A stretch of 63,439 nt of DNA, the filler included, from Vezdaea acicularis (Eukaryota): assembly GCA_026025075.1 (NCBI GenBank). It is 4 parts of 4 records of this genome, joined end to end, with 100 filler letters (N's around TTAATTAATTAA, not from the genome) between each part and the next. Parts side by side here need not be neighbours in the genome. Positions count along the whole stretch, not along the records: positions 1 to 18,173 come from JAPEUI010000206.1; 3 more parts are not named here. One strand, given 5' to 3'. The notes under the pieces were generated by a model, which saw nothing but the letters and a program-made list of their open reading frames with translations, was not told the DNA's origin and did no database searches. Positions 1 to 54,482 of this stretch are shown here, one piece after another (within the stretch, counting starts at the first letter, position 1; each line of letters opens with the position of its first letter). Position numbers and translations under genes: made by a program.

Positions 1-125
1 CCCTAACCCTAACCCTAACCCTAACCCTAACCCTAACCCTAACCCTAACCCTAACCCTAACCCTAACCCTAACCCTAACCCTAACCCTAACCCTAACCCT
101 AACCCTAACCCTAACCCTAACCCTA
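1..125. repeat. Telomeric repeat (CCCTAA)20 plus a partial unit; chromosome left end
   Basis: Perfect CCCTAA hexamers from base 1, C-rich strand 5', as expected for a left chromosome end. Confidence 0.99.
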
Positions 126-376
126 GAGTCGGTTTCGGGAGTCCGGCACCGGCACACGCCACAACGCGGCTCCAGGCAAGCCCTGAGCATAGGGCTTGTT
201 GGAATAGAGCTAGAAGAGGCATATGCACAGAGCACAAAGTATATTACAAGATATTAAACTTATTGCATTTGGTCATATTGTGATGATATCTTTGAAACTT
301 AATCATTCATAGAAGATAAGCTAACTGACGCCAAACACTTCAATTCACATGAAATAATAACCGTCAACTCATATCA

Positions 377-859
377 TCACCACTCATTTGCTACCATCAT
401 AGCCAAAGCCGGAGATAAATATCTCAACAACTCATCTTGTTGTTCTTGAAAGAATTGACTATATGCTCCATATGCTTGCACCGCCCTTTGCAATTCTCTT
501 CTCCATCTTGCTTTTGTAGCTCGGTCCGGACAACTATTCTCCTCCATTTCATCCTCCAATTGTATGAGCAACACATCTTCAATGTTTTTTTGACGTAGCC
601 GCTTGACAAGCAAGTGTATTGTACGATGTAAATGATGTAAGATGATCTGTGGAGGCATCTTTCTCCAGAACTCTGCCGTGATTGGAGGAGGAACTGAATT
701 CATTAGTATGTAAACCGATAATTGAAAGATATGCATACATTCATAGCCGGCAATAATGTCAGATAACTCCATGTCAAATGAGCCAAGTTGCATTCTAAAG
801 AGATATTAGACTGATTTATGCAGAGCTAGGTCATTTTGCACATACGTCAATTGATCCAT
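377..859 (-). CDS. Small hypothetical protein (~143 aa), 2 exons (859-846, 794-377)
   Basis: ATG GAT CAA TTG AC|GTATGT...TCTAAT...TTTAG|A ATG CAA; the 51-nt intron 795-845 joins in frame to the 138-aa ORF. Confidence 0.65.
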
Positions 860-1167
860 ATGATAGACGGAAAAGATTTATTGAGCAATAGCTTTTATGT
901 CACAATCCTAAAGGTCAGACGTGATAAATCATACGGCAAAAGGATAAAAAGGTTTTTAAAAAGCAGAGAGAAAGATTTGATCTTATATATTCAACTCCTG
1001 ATCACGTGCTGTAGATATGATTTCACGTGATATATGAAAAACTTTCTATTTAATTCCATCACATTTTACGACCAAAACTCTCTTTTAGCTAAAACTTATG
1101 CCTAAGAATATGCGTTAATTCAAATCTATGTTTATATCTACATCTATGTCTTGGTCTATGTCTATGT

Positions 1168-4100
1168 TTATGAAGCATTCTTGCCCTTATACTCCCGGGT
1201 AATCTTACACAAAGCATGCTCAAAGTCAATATTGGAAAATGGACGGCCACAGAAGTTTATCCACTTTTCGTCTCCCAGAACCTTGAATTCCTCCCTCATC
1301 TTATCCAAACCGGTGACCCATTCAGATCTGGAAACATATGGAATAGACACGTTCTGTTCCTTGGTGATGATGTTGAAAGCAACAGTTGAACCAAGCCCTT
1401 CTGTCATCTCGTTACCCCGATCTGATGCTTGACGCTTGATCTTCTCAGCCAGATCAGCTGTTGTTGGGTTTTGACAAAGTCCGTACTCAACCAGATCACA
1501 GATAGTTAACCAAGTGACCATACCATTCAGAGGAAGATTGCGGATCTTGAAATCAGCAATCCAATTCTTGATAGTGCTGAAAGAAGGTTGTTTTTGCTTG
1601 GAGACCCGTAGACTTTTCATCAACTCAGGGATTGAATTCCAGATATGCGTGAATGCTTCCAACTGCTGCTCTTCATTCTTGTATCGGAACTGACCATATG
1701 CCATCACATTGCTCTTGCATTTCTTGTTCCTTAATCTCTTGTCATTTGTCATAGCCTTCCAATCTTCCAGATTCTTCATCTGTGCAATCTTTTTCATTCG
1801 GGACTCTTTGCCAAAGCCATAGAGACGCCAAAGAAAGATACGCCAGTAGAAGGTCTTTTGTTCTTCTTGGGAAAGACTCAAAATGTCTTGGTCAAATGGA
1901 TATACCGTCTGAATGAAGCTCATACTTGGTGCTCGACGTCGGAAGATGATGTACTTATCTCCCGGAGCCCATACACAAGCTGCCTTCTGCATATATAATG
2001 CCAGATGAGGATCATTATATTGGTCCATGATGTGATGTTGACTCTTGCAGTCGGCCCAACGCTTGTAGATATGATCGCGTTCATTCTGAATCTCAAGAAT
2101 CTTCTCCCCCACAATAATACTATGGTAAAGATATCCAATCACTGAACGTTCAAAGTCATTCAGATAATTACCATCAATCAGATCCATGTCTGGCATGAAA
2201 TCAAGAATGAGCCGTATCCGTTCTGTAGATGTTTTGCTGGTTCTGGTCTTGCGTTTAAGTAGACCAGAAATAGCAGGTTTGGCTCGGATAGAAGGTAACT
2301 GATTGACTGATGGTTGATATTCATGGCTGGGAAGATCTCGTTGTCCACGGCTGGAGAGTTTTTGATAAACAAAAGTATATCTCCCATAAGCTTTGACGTG
2401 TTCTTGAATAGACGAAGAAAGAGAACGGAACTCAGGACTGGATAAGGCGGCAATGAAATCCTCAATAGATTCTCTGTTTACTCTATCGGCTTGATTGGAG
2501 AGGAACGCAAATTGAAGCATTTCTGGGATCATATTGAAGCTCCAGGTTGAGAATGAATTGGTGGAATGACAGAAATGTTGTTGCAAAGCCATGAGAAGTG
2601 GAAGACGGGAGACGATGATAAGCTTAGAGCGATTTCTGGTTGCTAGTAGTCGATCCCGATAGATGTTAGTATTAGATCAATAACAACCTAAGTTTTCCAG
2701 AAATCTTTCAACAGGTTTGGAGAAACACATGCCATAGATGACGTTTTCAAGGATAATACCCTTGTTGTAAGATGTGTTTGAAGGAGTTAATCGTCCAGGT
2801 CTAGGTTCCAAGGAAACATCCAGATGTGCTCGAGGGTTATAGGCATTGCCTAGTACCTCTTTTGCAGACACCTCCAAGTTGCTATGAGGATACGTTTTGG
2901 ATTGAGTTTCTTCTTCCCATACCCTAAACTTATCATCAATGACGGTCTGTAATTGCATGGCAAATGAAGCATGCGGAAGAAGAGTTTCTGGATCTTCCCA
3001 AATATTGAGGAACGGATTCTTCATGGCCCCAATGAATTCAATCAGTAAGGTGAGGAAAGCTGATTGAAATCCCAATTTGACAATTTCAGCGGCGTCCGCT
3101 TTTTCTTGAAAGAGATAGAAAGCTTCTGTGTATGCTTGACAAGCCCTGATGCGTTCCACAGGAGTCATATCATCCATTTTCTCTAGAACAGGAACTGACT
3201 CCAGTGATCTAAATCCTTTCTGTAGATTAAGATCAAAAGCAGGACGAGTTTTGATCTCCGCTGTCTTGAGATCAAGTTGATCTTGTTTGAAGCATTCTTG
3301 AAAACAATGAAATAGGGAGTTCAAAGATCCGGTATTGCCTGTTTGATGAACATTAACTGTATCAATGCTGGCAGCGGCAGTAGAATGCACTGGAGAAGCA
3401 AGACGTTCCATGGTGTTGACATTAGAGGACCCAATGGAGATTATATTAGCCAAAGATGAAACTTGATCTTGAAGAAGTTGTGATGAGGATGCTCGTTGAT
3501 GAGTTTGATGTCGTTTACGAGACGGTTGTTCTGTTTCTGATTCTGTTTCATCTTCTGTAGTTTCTGCGGATTGATCTGCAGAGGAACCAGAAGATGAATC
3601 TGAACTCAGAGTTAAGATCTCCTGACGTACAACCTTAGATTGCTTGGAAGAATGCTTCATATCATAAAAAGGTCTCTGTAATGACGATTTAACAGTGTTC
3701 CGAATGTTGATCATACGATCTAGCAATCTTTGCCGGTTCTGCTTGATGGTTTGAAAGTTGTCTTCAGAAAGGAGAAGGGTATTTGGATCTTTGTCTTTCC
3801 ATGTGATAGCACTCAAAAGAGCATTCCGATCCAGTGATAAACCCAGATGTTTGAGACCATAAACCTCATCGCTATATTCATGAATAAGCGTGGCCAAAGT
3901 TCTTTGTCGCCAAGCATTATATGCTTGAATACCCCCAAAACATGAGGAAGCGTGCATCCAGAGACTTCGATTAGGGTTCTCATCAAGCTTCTTACCCATG
4001 AAGTTTATTTTCAGACTACCATCCATTATAACCGCTTTTGGATATGTGATAATGTTGATCCGGGTCTCTTGTTCATAGCCATAGGGAATCTCCGAGATGT

Positions 4101-4260
4101 CCTGATTATCGACACAAAACGGTGTTCCAGTATGCTCTTCTATGCCTTGAAAGACAATGCCATAACCCACAGTCATCCGGATAATGAGATCAAGATTAGG
4201 AAACCAGAACCAGCCAAGATTAGCTGATGGACGAACAGCCGAGCAATTGACATACAAATG
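1168..4260 (-). pseudogene. Disrupted fusion: C-terminal half of a TET/JBP-like 2OG-Fe(II) dioxygenase, a linker, and an aGPT-pyrophosphorylase / amino acid:DNA transferase-like (HhH glycosylase fold) domain
   Basis: ORFs 2677-4314 and 1168-2592 share a frame, with one TGA (2677-2679) between them. Dioxygenase-like motifs: GWFWFPNL, IVFQGIEEHTGTP, TRINIITYP. Transferase-like motifs: GMVTWLTICDLVEYGLCQNPT and DFEHALCKITR. The N-terminal HxD is absent. Confidence 0.6.
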
Positions 4261-4276
4261 TCTGCTTGAGCGCAAT

Positions 4277-4640
4277 TGTAAAACGCCGCAGTGGCTTTCT
4301 CGGTGGCCTGCCAACAGGGCTAGAGTGAGCTAAGCGAGATGAGCGCTGCTTAGGGCCTAGCCCAAGAGCAGCGTTGATCAAGCCTCTTTACTTATATATG
4401 CCAATGGCGCCCCTCCGATGGCTCATCATCGAATAGTTTCATACCCTAGCTAGATCGTACGAGACTTCCTTATATCTATATGACCTCATTATTCTTATAT
4501 CGCTCCATATAATGGGGCAAATATCATTATATCCAAAGTCTATCATTATATCTAGCTCCCGTAGCCCGCGTACACATCGCTAAGCGTATACCTCCTTGCC
4601 GCAGGCAGGACACAGACGTCATACGCCTGCCCTGCTCTCA
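4277..4640. other. Non-coding island of different sequence character that replaces the expected 5' half of the dioxygenase-like gene (possible LTR remnant)
   Basis: Starts TGTAA where recognisable dioxygenase-like sequence stops and ends where the minisatellite begins; no target-site duplication found. Confidence 0.25.
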
Positions 4641-4650
4641 AGAAAGAATC

Positions 4651-5667
4651 CCAGAGAATCATCAGATTGAGAATCGATAAATCCGTAATCGATGACGCAA
4701 AACTGATGCCACAAGACCAGGAGGATCGAAATTGGCAGATTCATCATGGATGACTTGGAATCTATTTCAAAAGGCCAAGAGGGTAAAAATTGACAAGTCA
4801 AAACCAATGCCGGAAGATCCAGAGGGTCAAAACTGGCTGATCAAGACTTGATGTCAAGAGTTGTTGTCTCAAGATTGTTTCCAGAGGATCATCAGATTGA
4901 GAATTAACAAATCCGTGATCGATGACAGGAAACTGATGCCACAAGATCAGGAGGGCCGAAATTGGCAGATTCATGATGGATGACTTGGAATCTATTTTAA
5001 AAGGCCAAGAGGGTAAAAATCGACAAGTCAAAATCAATGCCGGAAGATCAAAAGGGTCGAAACTGGCAGATCCAGAGTTGATGTCAAGAGTTGATGTCTC
5101 GAGATCGATTCCAGAGGATCATCAGATGCCACAAGATCAGGAGGGCCAAAATTGGCAGATTCATGATGGACAACTCGGAATCTATTTCAAAAAGCCAAGA
5201 GGGTAAAAATCGACAAGTCAAAACCAATGCCAGAAGATCAAGAGGGTCGAAACTGGCAGATCAAGAGTTGATGTCTCGAGATCAATTCCAGAGGATCATC
5301 AGATTGAGAATCGACAAATCCATGATGTCTCGAGATCGATTCCAGAGGATCATTAGATTGAGAATTGACAAATCCGTGATCGATGAAGCAAAACTGATGC
5401 CAGAAGACCAGGAGGGCCGGAATTAGCAGATTCATCATGGATAACTTGGAATCAATTTCAAAAGGCCAAGAGGGTAAAAATCGACAAGTCAAAACCAATG
5501 CCGGAAGATCAACAGGGTCGAAACTGACAGATCAAAAGTTGATGTCAAGAGTTGATGTCTCAAGATCGATTCTAGAAGATCATCAGATTGAAAATTGACA
5601 AATCCGTGATCGATGACGCAAAACTGATGCCAGAAGACTAAGAAGGCCAAAATTGGCAGATTCATGA
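4651..5667. repeat. Subtelomeric minisatellite, ~230-bp unit, ~4.5 imperfect copies with internal deletions and duplications
   Basis: The CCAGAGGATCATCAGAT-type start recurs at 4651, 4881, 5111, 5288, 5343 and ~5572; AAAATCGACAAGTCAAAACCAATGCC is repeated. Confidence 0.92.
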
Positions 5668-5759
5668 ACCAATGTTTGGAAACCGCTGCCAGAACATTAA
5701 ATCTATCAAAATTGACAAATTAAAATCCATTCCACAATGATGACCACCCAAAACATCGA

Positions 5760-8700
5760 TCAGTTTTCTCTGGTTCTTTCCAGTTGATTTTTGAATTCCA
5801 AAGCTAGATTTAGCTTGGTGTCTATGCCATATCGCATTGGATTTTTGATTAATCCAGAGTCTTTAGAATGAATGTCACCTTCAGTCAAAAGAAAAAGCTG
5901 ATCTGCTCTCGTCAGTTGTTCATGAATCTCTTGCCAATGTAGATTTGATCCAGTACTAAGATGGCTCTCCTGCTGGACTGATTGCTTCAAAGCTTCAAAT
6001 ATTCCAAAATACAGTGGATTCAGCTGCGGGATAATCCAGTTAGTCCGAGACAATGTTTCCATCTCTTGCAGCATTTCAAAAGTCTTGGACGCATTGTGCT
6101 TTGAAGCTCTTCGTATGACAGAGAGCTTGTCAATATTGTATTGCGGTATGATCCATATCTTTCGGCAAGCATGAAGATTGATCACTTTATCAAAGCTTCT
6201 TGATGTTTTTGGTCCTAGCACATCTTTGACAATATGCCGAAGCCGGCGTTTCCATTCTCGAAATGGGCTGTATTCCCATCCACGTTTTTTGACTGCGCCA
6301 GGCATGTTATCATCTAAACCAAACAGTCCAGCAATGCGGCCAATCCAGGTACCAGTATTGTATTGATCCAAAAGGCTCACATCACGACGGGCGGCTTTTT
6401 TAACTAGGATCAGATACGGCGGCATCTCTAGAAGCTTTGTTAAAAGATCATAGCTGAATCCTTCTAGGCCTTTAGACTGTATTGCATCAAAGCGTTCTTG
6501 GACTATATCTATCCTTGGATCCAGTTCCTTGGAACGTTGACGCAGAATATTAAGGATCTCCAGTTGATAGGATTGAATGATCAGTTCAGCTCCTAGTTGA
6601 AATACCCGTTTGCGCGCATGAGGATCTAAGCTCTCTTTAGGAAAAGCCAGTGACCGCTGCAACCATTCGCGAAAAAGCGCCAACTCTCGATGTTCTTGCT
6701 GAAGAAGATTTTGAATCCTCAAGGTTTGGTTTCTTTGTCTACCAAATCCATTGATTGCTAGTCCTAGTCGAGAAATGATGTCTGGCTTGAACATTGGAAG
6801 ACCTTCCCATAGGATTAAATCTGATGGCAACCAAGCTAAACCAGTCTGTTCTAAACTCTTGCGATAATCTAGCCCTAGACGTGTTGAAACTTCATTTGAT
6901 TCTTCATCGTCATCTAATTCATTTTCATTTTCTTCCAAAAGTGATTTGACTTTCCAATCATGCCACCATATAGATCTTTGCAGCGACTTTTCTAATTGCC
7001 CCAAGTTGGAATGCAATGTTCTGATGATAGCGCTGACCATCACACCATTGATCATCTGTTGCTCTGCAGATGCAGGAGAAAGTCCAACGGGCCCTGGATT
7101 AACTTGACAGATCAATGCTTCTAGACACATCAACCATCAATTGATGTCATATCCAATATATGTATTGACATCTTTGGTTCGGAAGACAAAATAGGGCCGG
7201 TGTTGATGTGGATCATTGCTTGCTGCATCATTTAAAGCAGCATCCAACTGTAGGCGGGAAAAACGTTCAAGAGTCATTCGATATTCTTGCCGTACACCAA
7301 AGCAGGTATCAATGATAGAACATATCGCTTGATTTACCCGTTGTTTAGCATGTTGATATATCTTTAGCAGATGCTGGCGTTTATCTAGATGGGAGGTTTG
7401 CCCTCCCCGATAGCTCAATTCATACCAGCGGTTGAGCAGATCTTGATCATATGCTAATCCTTCCAGCTGCTGATGATCAAATAGAACTAATCCTTTTAAT
7501 GGAGTAGCAAAAAGATCTTTATGAAGGCTATAAGCTTTGTTAAAAGCGATTCCGCCTTTGGCATGCCATTTGTTGGTTGGCAATATTTCAGCACAAGTTG
7601 ACATAATATCGCGAGTTAATGCCCAAGGAAACTCTTGAGTGCGAAGAAGTGATGATCTTTGATCCACAGCTTGAAATTGAATATTCCAGCTAGCACAACA
7701 TTTGGATTTTTGCAAAAGAGTTACTGCTTCATTCTGAAATAGTTCTGGAGTGTCTTCCAGTCCTAAATCTATCCAACATTTTTGTGCAGGCATATACCGT
7801 TCATTGGCATGAAAACATTGTCGGAGATGACGGAAATAATCCTGTCAAACCTGTTGAGGATCAAGCTTCTTGGTAAAGAGCTTTAGATTGTGCCCTTGCA
7901 CAATTAAAAACACCCCTCGAAAAATGGCGAATCTAGGGCTGTTGCATTTCTGCAAGACAAGATTCCAAAAACAATCCAAATACTCCTCAGGAATGCAATA
8001 TCGAAGATCTATTGGCGGTTGCACACCGGTAGGATGCCATTCTTGTTTGGCGGTTGATTTGATTTTAACTTCTGCAAAACTTCGAGGATGATGTTGCAAA
8101 ATATCATTTGGACAACTTTTGCGCAAGGACGGAATGATAATGTTGTCAATCCATTCCTCCTGTTGTATATCTGTCAAATGAGTTCCATCCCGATGAAGAA
8201 CAGGCATATGAGGAAAGAAAACATGGCACTGATAATTGAATCCGGCAGAGGCAAGTCCATGACCTAATCTTTGGTTTTTTAACTGATGCAGGCGTTTTCT
8301 TTGAAATCTAACATAAGGATTTTGCGTCACACGTCGCAAGTATGGAGGCCGATAGGCTAGATCAAATCCATTCCGATGTACGCCTAAACTGGTAACCTCT
8401 GCTATCAAGCTGTCCACATCCCAACGTCGAGATATTTGAAGAGAAGATTCTTGAATGGGGATACCAGACTCTATTTCCGAACAGGAAACATTTAGACTTG
8501 GAGGATTTCCATCTTCCCCCGCTAACAATGCTTTCCAAGCAATGTTCCGATAGTCTCCGTGTCTTCCATCTCTTGGTAACAGATTTTCATAATTTATCGG
8601 AAAGGTATTGGAGTGACTGGGACTGTCTCTTCTTGGCATATGCCTACTCCAATATTGACACATTTCCTTAAATCCCAAGCCTGATTTGTCTGATAAGTTT

Positions 8701-9398
8701 GTTCCTGCATTGCAAGAACAAGTGGTGCTCCAGGATTTTTGCAGTCATTCATCAATCTCATGATCCAATCCTAAAGCATCGTCTGAATTTGTTTCACTCA
8801 ATGTCAAAGATTGAGTGTCTGCAATATCATCGTCTCTTTCCAAGACATCAGTTGCTACACTGGAAGAGATATTTGAGCTGTCCAAAAGCTCTAAAGATTG
8901 TCTGAAGGCATCCAGCTCAAGTCCGGCCTCATCAGCAACATCTAATTGGCCTTGAACAGTTGATGGTTCCTGATTTGATGCAAATGATAGATTGAGAAGT
9001 TCATTGGATTCTGAATTAAGTCCATCTAAAGTAGTTGAATGATAATCTAGTAGAATATTTAAGTTAATATCGGATTCTTCATGTGCTTCTGCCGGCAAAA
9101 GAGGATGATCTGTTTCTGGATTAGACTTAACATCAAGTTGGGCATCAGCAAAAAGATTGACAAGTCCATCGAAAGGCTCATTCTGTTCGCTTGCAGCATG
9201 CAAAACTGGTGAGGAAATTGATGGAGCCAAAACAGCTGGAATAGATGATGACGTGGATTCTGGTAAGACGCTCAGTGATGTTGATGAATAGGACTGATTC
9301 AAGGATCTAAGTTGATAACGGTTTTGCCGTGCTTGTTGAGCCTGCAGCTTTTCTGCTGGAGTCTTTGCTTTTCGCCCCATGATTTTGATGGGAGGCAT
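5760..9398 (-). pseudogene. ~1,210-codon uncharacterised fungal protein interrupted by three in-frame TGA codons
   Basis: ORFs 8745-9401, 7845-8678, 7137-7793 and 5760-7133 share one frame. Hand translation of the gaps shows only TGA at 8745-8747, 7845-7847 and 7137-7139. Conserved-looking motifs: WDVDS, HVFFPHM, WIDLGLE, KAYSLHK, FGVRQEYR. Confidence 0.75.
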
Positions 9399-9492
9399 CA
9401 AACGCTATGGCGGATGCGTTGATATTTATTAAAATGGTAGGAAGGCCACCTATGGCTTGTAGTGGCGTGTCTATAATGACCAATCATAAGTA

Positions 9493-9797
9493 GAATAAAC
9501 CGTCAAGCGTGATATGAAAACTTCCTATTCCATTTTTATTAGGTCCGGTTTAATGGAACTAACCAATTGCTGATTGATTCAGCTTAAGCGAGATTAACAC
9601 AAGCAATTTTCATACATGCGCGATTTTTTTTTATCCAATGATTCAATGACACGGCAGGATATTAGAAGTTGTATGGTCGCTACCATAGATAGAGCACACT
9701 AAAAATTGAAGTGTAACCAATCAGATGAGGAATAAACCGTCAAGCGCCGTTTGTCCTTGACGCCAAGCGAAACGAAAGCGCGCTTGACGGTTTATTC
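9493..9797. repeat. GAATAAACCGTCAAGCG motif: direct copies at 9493 and 9730, inverted copy at 9780-9797 (18-bp perfect inverted repeat, 32-bp spacer)
   Basis: 9730-9747 GAATAAACCGTCAAGCGC is the exact reverse complement of 9780-9797 GCGCTTGACGGTTTATTC. Confidence 0.9.
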
Positions 9798-10522
9798 ATT
9801 GCTTAATAGGCTGCGTTGCATTAGAGGCGCATACTAATGCTCGCTTATGCCCAAATAACCAATTAGCATCTATGCCATCCCTCCACTACAACCACGCCAT
9901 CCCGGTACGCAACCATCTTCTAGGCCGTCTGGCTGCTGGAAGAAATTTCCATAATCCTAATCGTGTCACATCATCAATATTTAACGCCAACGTGGGCACT
10001 GACGCAGTCACCAATGCCTGAACTACGCGCAAATGAACTTTTTCAAGCGTTTAGGCTCAACTTTTGATCTTATTGCCAGTTCTATGCAGCAAGTCGCTCC
10101 TCGCCTTCTTTATTACGTAAATATTCGTCGAATTATGCGTCTTATAAGCAAATGTTTTCGTCTTGCCCTGACTCTTAACCCTACGCAGCGAACAGGTTTT
10201 CTCAAAGATGCGTTATTTTACACGCCCAGTCTCACGCTCACACTGGTGCTTATCTGCTGATGTGATTCATGTTCTCACAATGCACTTCAAGGGTAGACTT
10301 CGGTCTACTATTTGGGAGAAAAGAGGTGATCTCGAGGGTTAGGTTTAAGGTTTTCAATGAGTCAAAGTTCATCGTATAATGACGTTTCTCTAGTTGAATA
10401 ATCATCTAAAGGGTTTAAATTTTAACTTCCCCACTACAAAATCATGTTTTCATGTTTAGCACAAGGGCCATGATACGTATGATTATTATTCTTCCTCTGC
10501 ATACCGCATATGTTAGACCCTA

Positions 10523-19152: not shown

Positions 19153-21491
19153 ATGAAGCACTCCCCTTCCTCCCTCACCCTCCTCTCCGCGCTGATCATT
19201 CAGTCTGCTTTCGCCATCCCCTGTCCTCCTGCCGGCAACTCGTCCTCCTTAGCCCCTTGGTATCCAACGGGGAATAATTTCTCATCTACCATCTCTCCCT
19301 CCGCATACGCTCCTTTGTCCTCTACCTACCTTCCCTACGAGAGTCCTGTCCTCTCAGCAATTACGGATATTCCGGCACCATGGGAGGCCCCATCTGCCAG
19401 TACTTTAGCTCCAGTCATCTATTCAAGCACTGATGCACCACTACCAACAAGTACGAGCTGCCCATTTTCCTCCCAAAGACCGTTCTGGAGCTAACTTCCA
19501 TCACCAGGTCTCGAAAGACGCGATGATTGGTGGGCCGGCGACACTCCCGTCGCCTCACCCTGGGTTCCTCATACTCCTGTCGGATCTCCATGGGCTCCCT
19601 ACAGTCCTGTCGCATCGTCATGGGCTCCCGAAACTCCTGTCGCATCTCCCTGGCGAACGTATGTCACGCCAAGTCCAGACACCCGGGACTCCTGGCAATC
19701 TCCTACGCCATGGGCGCTATCTCGTGAGTAGAGCCTTTGTTTGAGGTTTTCGCTACTTCTGAACTAACTGTATGTGAAGCCCGCGCTCCTGAGCCACAAT
19801 TTGATGCGATAGCGGCCGCCATTGCACAAGCAACTGATACCGCTCAACCAAGTGATATCTCTCAAGAAATGGCCCGAATAGAAAAAGCCAACCAAACGGC
19901 CCTTGCGCTAATACAACGCCGTTCCACCAGGTTTGCTCCAGGTTCTGTAGCGCAAGCATCAACTTCTATCTGGGAGGTTCCAGCTCCTCAATCGACTGAA
20001 ATGCAAGCATCAGCTTCTAGCTGGGAGACTCAAGCTCCTCAACCAGTTGATGAGACCTATTGGTATGATGCTATTACTGATCCAGCGCCCTCGCCGTACT
20101 CGGAGCCGGAACAAAATTGGGCGCAGCAATTTGGCAAGCGTGAGCCGCTCCGTCTTGCGTCTGAGAATGGAACGCAATACAATCAGGCGAATTATACGCA
20201 GGGCAGTGGAAGTGGCCAGGTCAACTCTACCGTCAACAGTATGCTCAGCCAGCGCTCCCCACAACTAAACGAGACTTGGGTGCCGGCGCCACAGTACACC
20301 TCAACCATAGAAGCACAGCAGGCAGGGTTCGATCCTCAAACTCTACCTGAGCCTATCGAGGTCGAAGATCCGGTTCTCAGCAGCGAAGACGATGGTACAC
20401 CCAGCTTCGACAGACGTAAGCGCTCTCCCATTGCGCAAGATCAATCGCTACCCTCCGCTATGATCTCCGCTATAACCTCCATTGGGGATCCGCAGCCAGT
20501 AACCCCCACGATTGACCAGCCAATAGCGGGACCACCCGCGCCTGAACCACCCGCGCCTGAACCACCCGCGCCTGAACCACCCGCGCCTGAACCACCCGCG
20601 CCTGTACAAATTACGCATGAACAGCCCGAGTCGCCGGTGATAAATTCCAACGGTATAGAACCGAATTACGACGCTGAGTTGAACACCGGACCCAACGAAT
20701 ACGGCTCTCTTAGTATGGCACCGTACGCCAGGCTGAGCCGGCGCTTCGCCGAGCCTCAGGATTCCGCAAGTTACAGTTCCCATGACTACTGGACGGAGTC
20801 GATGAACAGCGACCGGCCCGGCGAACTTGAGCAATACGATCGGCCCGGCGTCGAATGGTTCCAGAAGCGTTCCGCCGAGCCTCAGGATTCCGCCAGTTAC
20901 ACTACCCATGACTACTGGACGGAGGCGATGAACAGCGACCGGCCCGGCGAACTTGAGCAATACGATCGGCCCGGCGTCGAATGGTTCCAGAAGCGTTCCG
21001 CCGAGCCTCAGGATTCCGCCAGTTACACTACCCATGACTACTGGACGGAGGCGATGAACAGCGACCGGCCCAGCGAACTTGAGCAATACGACCAGCCTAG
21101 CGCCGAATGGTTCCAGAAGCGCTCCCCCTCGCCACAAGACGTGAGCACGTCCATCCAGAACATCTGGGACGCGTTGCAGAGCGAAAGCGGTGGCGACTCG
21201 GGTCTCCAAATCGCCGATACCATACCACCTTCGGACGCTGGCAACGCGGGAACCTTCCGCAAGCGCTCCGCTGAGCCGGAGCCCCAGACTTATTCGGGCT
21301 CCGATACGGCTGGGTATACGGGCTCGACATCCGGGTACGGCAATACGGACCCTGGCTCTGCCACAGGAACCACGGGAACCACGGATGGAACAGCTCCCGC
21401 GCCTTGGCATGGTGAGCCTAGCGGCTTGTCAGAGGGTGGGACTACGGTCGGTGTTGCTGGCCGTATCAAGTTTAGGAGGCGCGCTGCCTAG
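19153..21491 (+). CDS. Secreted Kex2-processed repeat protein (~741 aa), exons 19153-19450, 19508-19723, 19780-21491
   Basis: Signal peptide MKHSPSSLTLLSALIIQSAFA; both introns have GT, a CTAAC branch site and AG, and keep the frame; multiple KR/RR sites followed by xA/xP dipeptides; three 42-aa repeats. Confidence 0.8.
20531..20604 (+). repeat. 15-bp coding repeat ACCACCCGCGCCTGA x5 (PPAPE)
   Basis: Direct inspection. Confidence 0.95.
20748..21122 (+). repeat. 126-bp coding repeat x3 (42-aa unit ending in KR)
   Basis: GCCGAGCCTCAGGATTCCGC at 20748, 20874 and 21000. Confidence 0.95.
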
Positions 21492-54339: not shown

Positions 54340-54482
54340 TAAGGTGCAGCTCTTTTAAGGTGCAGCTCTTTTAAGGTGCAGCTCTTTTAAGGTGCAGCTC
54401 TTTTAAGGTGCAGCTCTTTTAAGGTGCAGCTCTTTTAAGGTGCAGCTCTTTTAAGGTGCAGCTCTTTTAAGGTGCAGCTCTT
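54340..54482. repeat. Perfect 16-bp tandem repeat TAAGGTGCAGCTCTTT x~9, running into the gap
   Basis: Direct inspection. Confidence 0.96.

Follow-up and report, generated by a model that had tools for sequence, protein, structure and literature searches.

Helitrons and Replitrons are eukaryotic rolling-circle transposons with HUH enzymes, and the eukaryotic rolling-circle elements known to us use enzymes of this kind. Telomere-linked helicase (TLH) units and yeast Y' elements occupy terminal positions, are transcribed toward the telomere and contain tandem arrays. Here we examine one end of a 63,439-nt stretch of DNA (the window) from the Vezdaea acicularis assembly GCA_026025075.1 (G000), where three frames, ORF1 to ORF3, lie between telomere repeats and the housekeeping gene IML2, which begins at about 10.6 kb. 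With a probability of roughly 60%, we propose that positions 4636-9978, possibly 144-9978, are one copy, now decayed, of a telomere-junction-targeting DNA element, with ORF1 as a candidate tyrosine nuclease of enlarged Rep_trans fold (TBP-like, non-HUH). This reading rests on a terminus that is fixed, on its repeated joining to DNA next to telomeres, on the rank of Rep_trans in the fold search and on the conservation of Rep_trans-like motifs.

The ORF1 protein looks like the enzyme with which bacterial rolling-circle plasmids nick their DNA. Rep_trans (PF02486) initiators include RepC and RepD of the pT181 family, RepSTK1 and the MOBT relaxases (PMC4797284). In the accessible parts of the literature these enzymes are described as bacterial, with archaea as the only extension (archaeal Rep-Arvir; PMC13107129, 2026). 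No eukaryotic Rep_trans element was found in those parts of the open-access literature that were available, supplements and Repbase being outside the scope of the search, and a Rep_trans-type enzyme in a eukaryotic telomere-junction element would probably be categorically new. If true, our reading would extend the second class of rolling-circle nucleases to eukaryotes and define a new type of transposon. It would also make DNA-element insertion 16-28 bp inside the telomere a new route of chromosome-end turnover and of safe-harbour targeting, and it would give a function to the ORF1 family, which comprises at least 381 unannotated 50%-identity clusters.

A multi-copy element with one sharp terminus

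A DNA search of the window's own genome separated three layers: a multi-copy layer at 4636-9978, a many-copy layer at 4277-4646 and a single-copy layer at 126-4276. The features of the first layer and its junction are as follows (residue numbers refer to the frame of copy C163).

4636-9978: multi-copy part of the element (inner 5.3 kb)
4636 to 5665-5668, plus strand: 230-bp tandem array of the element
5760-9398, minus strand: ORF1, candidate mobility enzyme, about 1,210 codons
7176-8450, minus strand: Rep_trans-like core of ORF1
8414, 7769, 7757, 7532, 7292 and 7286: core codons D106, D321, E325, Y400, R480 and E482 of ORF1, respectively
9730-9797: 23-bp inverted repeat with AATAAACCGTCAAGCG arms and a third copy of the arm at 9493-9509; may be an origin or a binding site
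9962-9978, plus strand: sharp element terminus, ending in CGTGTCACATCATCAAT
9979-10197, plus strand: target, telomere-adjacent sequence that begins 17-19 bp from the repeats at seven other chromosome ends

The 17-mer ending at 9978 occurs exactly seven times in G000, identical in 7/7 copies and followed by different DNA each time. A 17-kb contig of X5, a sequencing run from another study, contains the same terminus and also departs from the window exactly at 9978 (the run comparison covered 4 of 6 runs, at likeness 85). Among the sequencing runs listed as containing the sequence, none was of RNA. The inner edge, which an earlier note on this DNA had set at 9850, lies at 9978. Two further terminus matches, each with two mismatches, turned out to be unrelated DNA. 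The G000 copies of ORF1 comprise four that are near-full and one that is partial; in every copy ORF1 faces the contig end, and it is the gene nearest to the sharp end, at a distance of about 580 bp. A second terminus, terminal inverted repeats or a target duplication were not found among the G000 copies. One sharp end without target duplication is the outcome that rolling-circle transposition gives.

These copies bear out the earlier note's suspicion of a mobile, telomere-associated element. The contrary picture, of single-copy genes syntenic in relatives, fails for the multi-copy ORF1, but ORF2 and ORF3 are single-copy in the assembly. Contig depth is greater over ORF1 than over ORF2 and ORF3; it does not measure copy number and was given no weight. 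The minisatellite that the note had ascribed to the block is the 230-bp array. In copies C163, C12 and C4 it gives way to a 155-bp array, which is absent from the window; C163 and C4 stop within this second array and C12 about 400 bp beyond it. The 155-bp array has internal inverted repeats (L001:1-1240, L003:1-940, L002:8200-8830).

The inverted repeat near the inner edge, likewise noted before, has a predicted hairpin energy of -26 kcal/mol. A near-identical repeat lies upstream of an ORF1 relative in the metagenome locus L026 (3/1000 shuffles), and no counterpart was found in loci L023, L029 and L030.

The element resembles Helitrons and Replitrons in its single sharp end, the absence of a visible target duplication, its hairpins, possible cargo capture and presumed tyrosine chemistry. 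It differs from them in that a conserved HUH pair is missing, the window encodes no helicase, the fold is another one and the target is the telomere junction. Helitron-type elements also have a fixed 3' end with a hairpin and an A|T target, and the flanks here start with varied bases.

Joining to telomere-adjacent DNA

We compared the flanks of the seven copies with telomere-adjacent DNA at 18 other chromosome ends. Eight of these ends were first found by their likeness to the window flank, whereas the matches for C163 and C245 are to ends found only via the telomere pattern. Six of the seven flanks matched telomere-adjacent DNA, as did 7/200 control pieces, and five of the six join it 16-28 bp from the repeats. 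The junctions of the window, C135 and C88 lie 16-19 bp inside the position where sister ends carry repeats, that of C163 lies 23-28 bp inside (relative to C71 and C14), that of C245 18 bp inside (relative to C162) and that of C4 119 bp inside; the C12 flank had no match among the 18 ends. At least three different target sequences are found on the chromosome side. The first bases of the flanks differ even inside one target family, which favours separate insertions over the copying of one junction, and since the offset stays fixed although the target sequences are unrelated, the element seems to be guided by position or by a telomere protein rather than by sequence.

Repeated insertion at fungal chromosome ends recalls the MoTeR telomeric retrotransposons of Magnaporthe, which insert in telomere repeats (PMC7367193). 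Unlike these, the element has no reverse transcriptase (Pfam, window frames), and its junctions are displaced inward from the repeats, as described above.

The same junctions can be used to weigh a passive origin. Like TLH units and Y' elements, our element is terminal, transcribed toward the telomere and equipped with tandem arrays, and an ORF1 relative stands before an OrsD-DEAD helicase in L023-L025. A Y'-like subtelomeric repeat spread by break-induced replication or terminal capture, in which the element end is not a substrate of ORF1, whether or not that protein is Rep_trans-like, would fit with all copies facing the contig end, six of seven at telomere-adjacent DNA, and with tandem arrays, which are typical of subtelomeres. 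Divergence between C163 and C12 is moreover uneven along ORF1, suggesting recombination among copies. However, exchange driven by homology should carry the flank along, whereas here the element side of the junction is base-exact in all seven copies and X5, and the chromosome sides are unlike each other from their very first bases. This base-exact end at different targets sets the element apart from TLH units and Y' elements, as does the lack of such a helicase in the window or genome, although the assembly may be incomplete. We consider a passive origin unlikely, though it retains some weight.

Several other observations were made at G000 chromosome ends. Many telomeres have housekeeping genes no more than 1-2 kb away. 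At three chromosome ends (L006:1-134 and the telomere-side ends of L009 and L010; C299, C26, C302) a different GC-rich repeat is joined to the same telomere-adjacent sequence via a degenerate CTAAACCTAACCCT tract; it may be a terminal repeat or another element that inserts at telomeres. Short interstitial telomere tracts are present within contigs (L154 and L159; C158:1965 and C310:12608). An inverted repeat pairing 107-128 with 10331-10352 was rejected as an element feature; it stems from the host subtelomere, where a degenerate telomere tract is present, as also in C88.

ORF1 as the candidate mobility enzyme

The earlier note had proposed the large protein as candidate mobility or partner gene, and ORF1 is indeed the best candidate for the mobility enzyme. 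Its 1,210 codons and the 1,050 codons of ORF2 can be read as frames only by read-through, of three in-frame TGA stops in ORF1 (8745, 7845 and 7137) and one in ORF2 (2677). These stops, together with truncation, rule out an intact three-gene cassette. Classical repeat-induced point mutation was not supported in the window (TpA/ApT 0.49); the three ORF1 stops are CGA/TGA differences.

In agreement with the note, mobility genes of known families were not recognisable: the seven frame pieces of ORF1-ORF3 had no Pfam match at E<=1, and tblastn with telomere-linked helicase gave no match in the window. Searching Pfam with the ORF1 pieces and 54 homologues returned nothing except one sub-threshold Crp row, and no DUF3435 tyrosine recombinase. 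No annotation of ORF1 was obtained from PHROGs, PDB sequences or the atlas (best score 0.77), Foldseek against PDB and BFVD gave nothing at E<=0.001, and IMG/VR contained no relatives.

In the fold search, three Rep_trans entries come out ahead of every other chain, with about two thirds of their length covered, and the structural model of ORF1 is predicted to have the TBP-like curved beta-sheet catalytic fold of Rep_trans. The metal ligands D46/D142/E214 of Rep_trans have counterparts among the homologues in D106 (51/51), D321 (51/52) and E482 (52/52), each on a predicted strand, in a register set by motif and range start rather than by 3D superposition. The candidate catalytic tyrosine motif is K/Q398-x-Y400-xxx-K404, with Y400 in 53/53 and the lysine two residues further than in RepD. 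Altogether, 8 of the 12 most conserved charged or tyrosine columns fall on Rep_trans-like motifs, in order. Histidine is absent from the ORF1 columns conserved at 90% or more, and with it the HUH nuclease motif.

ORF1 is thus like Rep_trans in its top fold matches, its D/D/E metal triad on separate strands, a nearby hairpin, and [RK]xY..K and RxE motifs in the same order. It is unlike Rep_trans in belonging to a eukaryotic, chromosomal element and in its length of about 1,200 aa with large insertions; its nicking activity is putative. Several points count against the assignment. The fold match has a modest Z and a high rmsd. Neither Pfam (PF02486 included) nor a Rep_trans profile matched ORF1 (hhalign 0.1%, with a shallow template). 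R140, which precedes DxAxD in Rep_trans, is not kept, and W319 takes its place in 42/53. The modest fold match and the missing sequence or profile support speak for the alternative that ORF1 is unrelated to Rep_trans, a different metal-dependent enzyme carried by the element, with the match reflecting a common curved beta-sheet. We give this explanation little credence, since the three Rep_trans entries top all chains and the conserved columns fall on the motifs in order. By strict membership ORF1 lies outside PF02486, yet it appears to work like Rep_trans.

The best viral fold match, in BFVD, was A0A7M3UNM4, a protein of Pyramimonas orientalis virus that is uncharacterised (E 1.9e-3, with a low TM-score), followed by weaker matches to Pithovirus and inovirus proteins; giant-virus relatives of the fold are possible.

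Relatives of ORF1 and a possible larger element

Relatives of ORF1 are contained in 18 metagenome loci, many of them from a few related elements, and the family is called fungal by the neighbouring genes in its loci. In L023-L025 and L039 (one element) the relative precedes an OrsD-DEAD helicase of telomere-linked type, and the L023 and L025 units start next to repeats that contain TTAGGG and have the orientation of an old chromosome end. In L026 the relative adjoins a fragment of such a helicase. The apparent ORF1-helicase fusion there is probably a chimera, because ORF1 is truncated in it and 0/54 long homologues have a helicase domain.

This neighbourhood raises the question of whether the terminus belongs to a larger element with another mobiliser in its unassembled distal part, such as a Starship-like captain or a TLH whose sequence includes a tyrosine-recombinase-like region. 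In that case ORF1 would serve as an accessory replication protein, for example one amplifying an excised circle. Distal parts are absent from the assembly in six of seven copies, and bacterial Rep_trans proteins also serve integrative elements in replication and transfer (PMC4797284). Against this, the telomere-linked-helicase-like genes of G000 amount to one 34% match, to the helicase domain alone, and the window copy, with ORF1 as its first gene, reaches the telomere without any such gene. A mobiliser other than ORF1 is, in our view, slightly less credible again than passive spread. The element is like Starships (PMC13486527) in having the candidate mobiliser as first gene at its 5' end and possible cargo, and unlike them in having no DUF3435 tyrosine recombinase, no listed auxiliary gene and no direct repeats that we could find.

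Separately, L023:6647-11395 encodes an intact 1,583-aa OrsD-DEAD helicase directly downstream of an intact ORF1 relative; the central region of this helicase looks tyrosine recombinase-like by eye. An 11-kb repeat is present in two copies, L036 and L038, of which one is AT-shifted.

Proposed mechanism

If ORF1 is a Rep_trans-fold nuclease, its enzyme may bind the inverted repeat near the terminus, and Y400 would nick the element end with a D106/D321/E482 metal site, forming a 5'-phosphotyrosine. The strand would then be transferred to a nick beside telomeric chromatin, so that the element comes to lie about 16-28 bp inward of the telomere repeats, ORF1 facing the chromosome end. Such a reaction would be rolling-circle and copy-paste, like that of IS91 or Helitrons, with a different enzyme. 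The distal end could either be kept with the old spacer and telomere, or be truncated and re-capped by telomerase. In the present copy, an LTR (long terminal repeat) insertion plus a deletion may have brought the array up against a TET/JBP gene truncated at its 5' end, while ORF1 may have been broken by CpG decay. The TET gene, if part of the unit, might act as anti-silencing cargo.

Extent of the proposed inserted unit

Whether the insertion reaches beyond the multi-copy layer depends on the DNA between the array and the telomere, which contains the following features.

1-125, plus strand: telomere repeats, (CCCTAA)x20.8
126-143, plus strand: possible native telomere spacer, with TTCGG at offset 8
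171-203: predicted DNA hairpin (about -10 kcal/mol, no comparison with shuffles), a candidate termination signal close to the presumed distal end
377-805, minus strand: ORF3, orphan, 116-142 aa
1026-1050 (plus strand) and 9508-9529: weak motif common to the regions upstream of ORF3 and ORF1
1168-4275, minus strand: ORF2, 5'-truncated TET/JBP-type dioxygenase pseudogene fused to a long C-terminal region
4277-4646, plus strand: LTR fragment, starting TGTAA, its 3' end replaced by the array

All three frames are on the minus strand and point toward the telomere, as had been reported. The earlier note's idea of three genes moving as one unit stands for the ORF1 part, which is a mobile element, but joint movement is not borne out by the assembly. 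We put the chances that ORF2 and ORF3 belong to the same unit as the ORF1 element at about even.

Several lines of evidence speak for a single unit. TTCGG, a motif chosen after seeing the window, is present in the first 16 nt at 6/18 other ends compared with 32/3299 background windows (about 1%), and its presence at the window's telomere junction is what insertion of the whole block some 18 bp inside the telomere would predict; provided that the spacer is real, the inserted block possibly starts near 144. The hairpin at 171-203 points the same way. X5, which is from a related organism, has ORF3 with the end of ORF2, plus the element terminus. The LTR-array joint is present in runs X1 and X2 (one study) as well, and an X1 contig departs from ORF2 at 4252, without the LTR. 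Other observations count against a single unit. A position weight matrix test of the telomere spacer gave p=0.06. The assembly has only one copy each of ORF2 and ORF3, and past the array the other copies of the element are different. The expected linkage of the three families across relatives was not seen either: by tblastn, 0/18 ORF1-relative loci, most of them short, had a TET or ORF3 homologue. 

The most far-reaching version of our reading is tentative, and we lean against it: that 144-9978 is one whole inserted copy of a new superfamily of eukaryotic rolling-circle DNA transposons, with a Rep_trans-fold tyrosine nuclease and hundreds of protein clusters, and, in this fungus, with the telomere-subtelomere junction as specific target and TET/JBP anti-silencing cargo.

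TTCGG lies within 5-8 nt of the telomere repeats at G000 ends L007, L008, L011, L138, L150 and L152, unrelated subtelomeres included. TET, ORF3 and the 155-bp array were absent from 14 stretches around further telomere-repeat sites.

ORF2, ORF3 and other features

ORF2 is 39-42% identical to its full-length homologue P0152 from residue 195 on. Residues 60-330 of P0152 scored 0.95 for Tet_JBP in the atlas (198 shared features; 25/30 matches Tet_JBP), and Pfam gave no match to its 2OG-Fe (Tet_JBP-type) domain. The HxD motif lies in residues 1-194, missing from the window copy, in which the distal H and R of the catalytic set remain; we therefore regard ORF2 as a TET/JBP fusion gene that has lost its 5' part and is dead. 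A suspected resemblance of its C-terminal region to HhH or aGPT-pyrophosphorylase domains was not confirmed. In the accessible part of a recent survey, 11 TET-carrying fungal transposon lineages are DDE-type or Helitron, none Rep_trans-like (Kojima 2025, PMC12730594). The window shares with them a TET/JBP gene beside a mobile element and differs in that its TET gene is of a truncated 1,260-1,300-aa fusion type, putatively linked and present in a single assembled copy.

ORF2 is interrupted at 4275 by the LTR fragment. The LTR family borders gag-pol frames in L014 and L019 that are Ty3/Gypsy-like by eye, and dense clusters of it, in both orientations, occur in L015-L016 (C283:214-232 kb) and L018-L019 (C244). 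The sole match of ORF3, P0273, bears the label Vezdaea acicularis in its source and lies on a contig equal in length to the window's; it is probably this locus's own gene model.

The upstream motif common to ORF1 and ORF3, which the note had described, exists but is weak, with 18/1000 shuffles scoring equally; a result of 0 matches by chance was discounted as circular because the pattern had been built from its two matches. Elsewhere, at 20531-21125 and 54340-54482, the window has GC-rich 126-bp (x3) and 15-bp repeats, and a perfect 16-bp x8.9 array.

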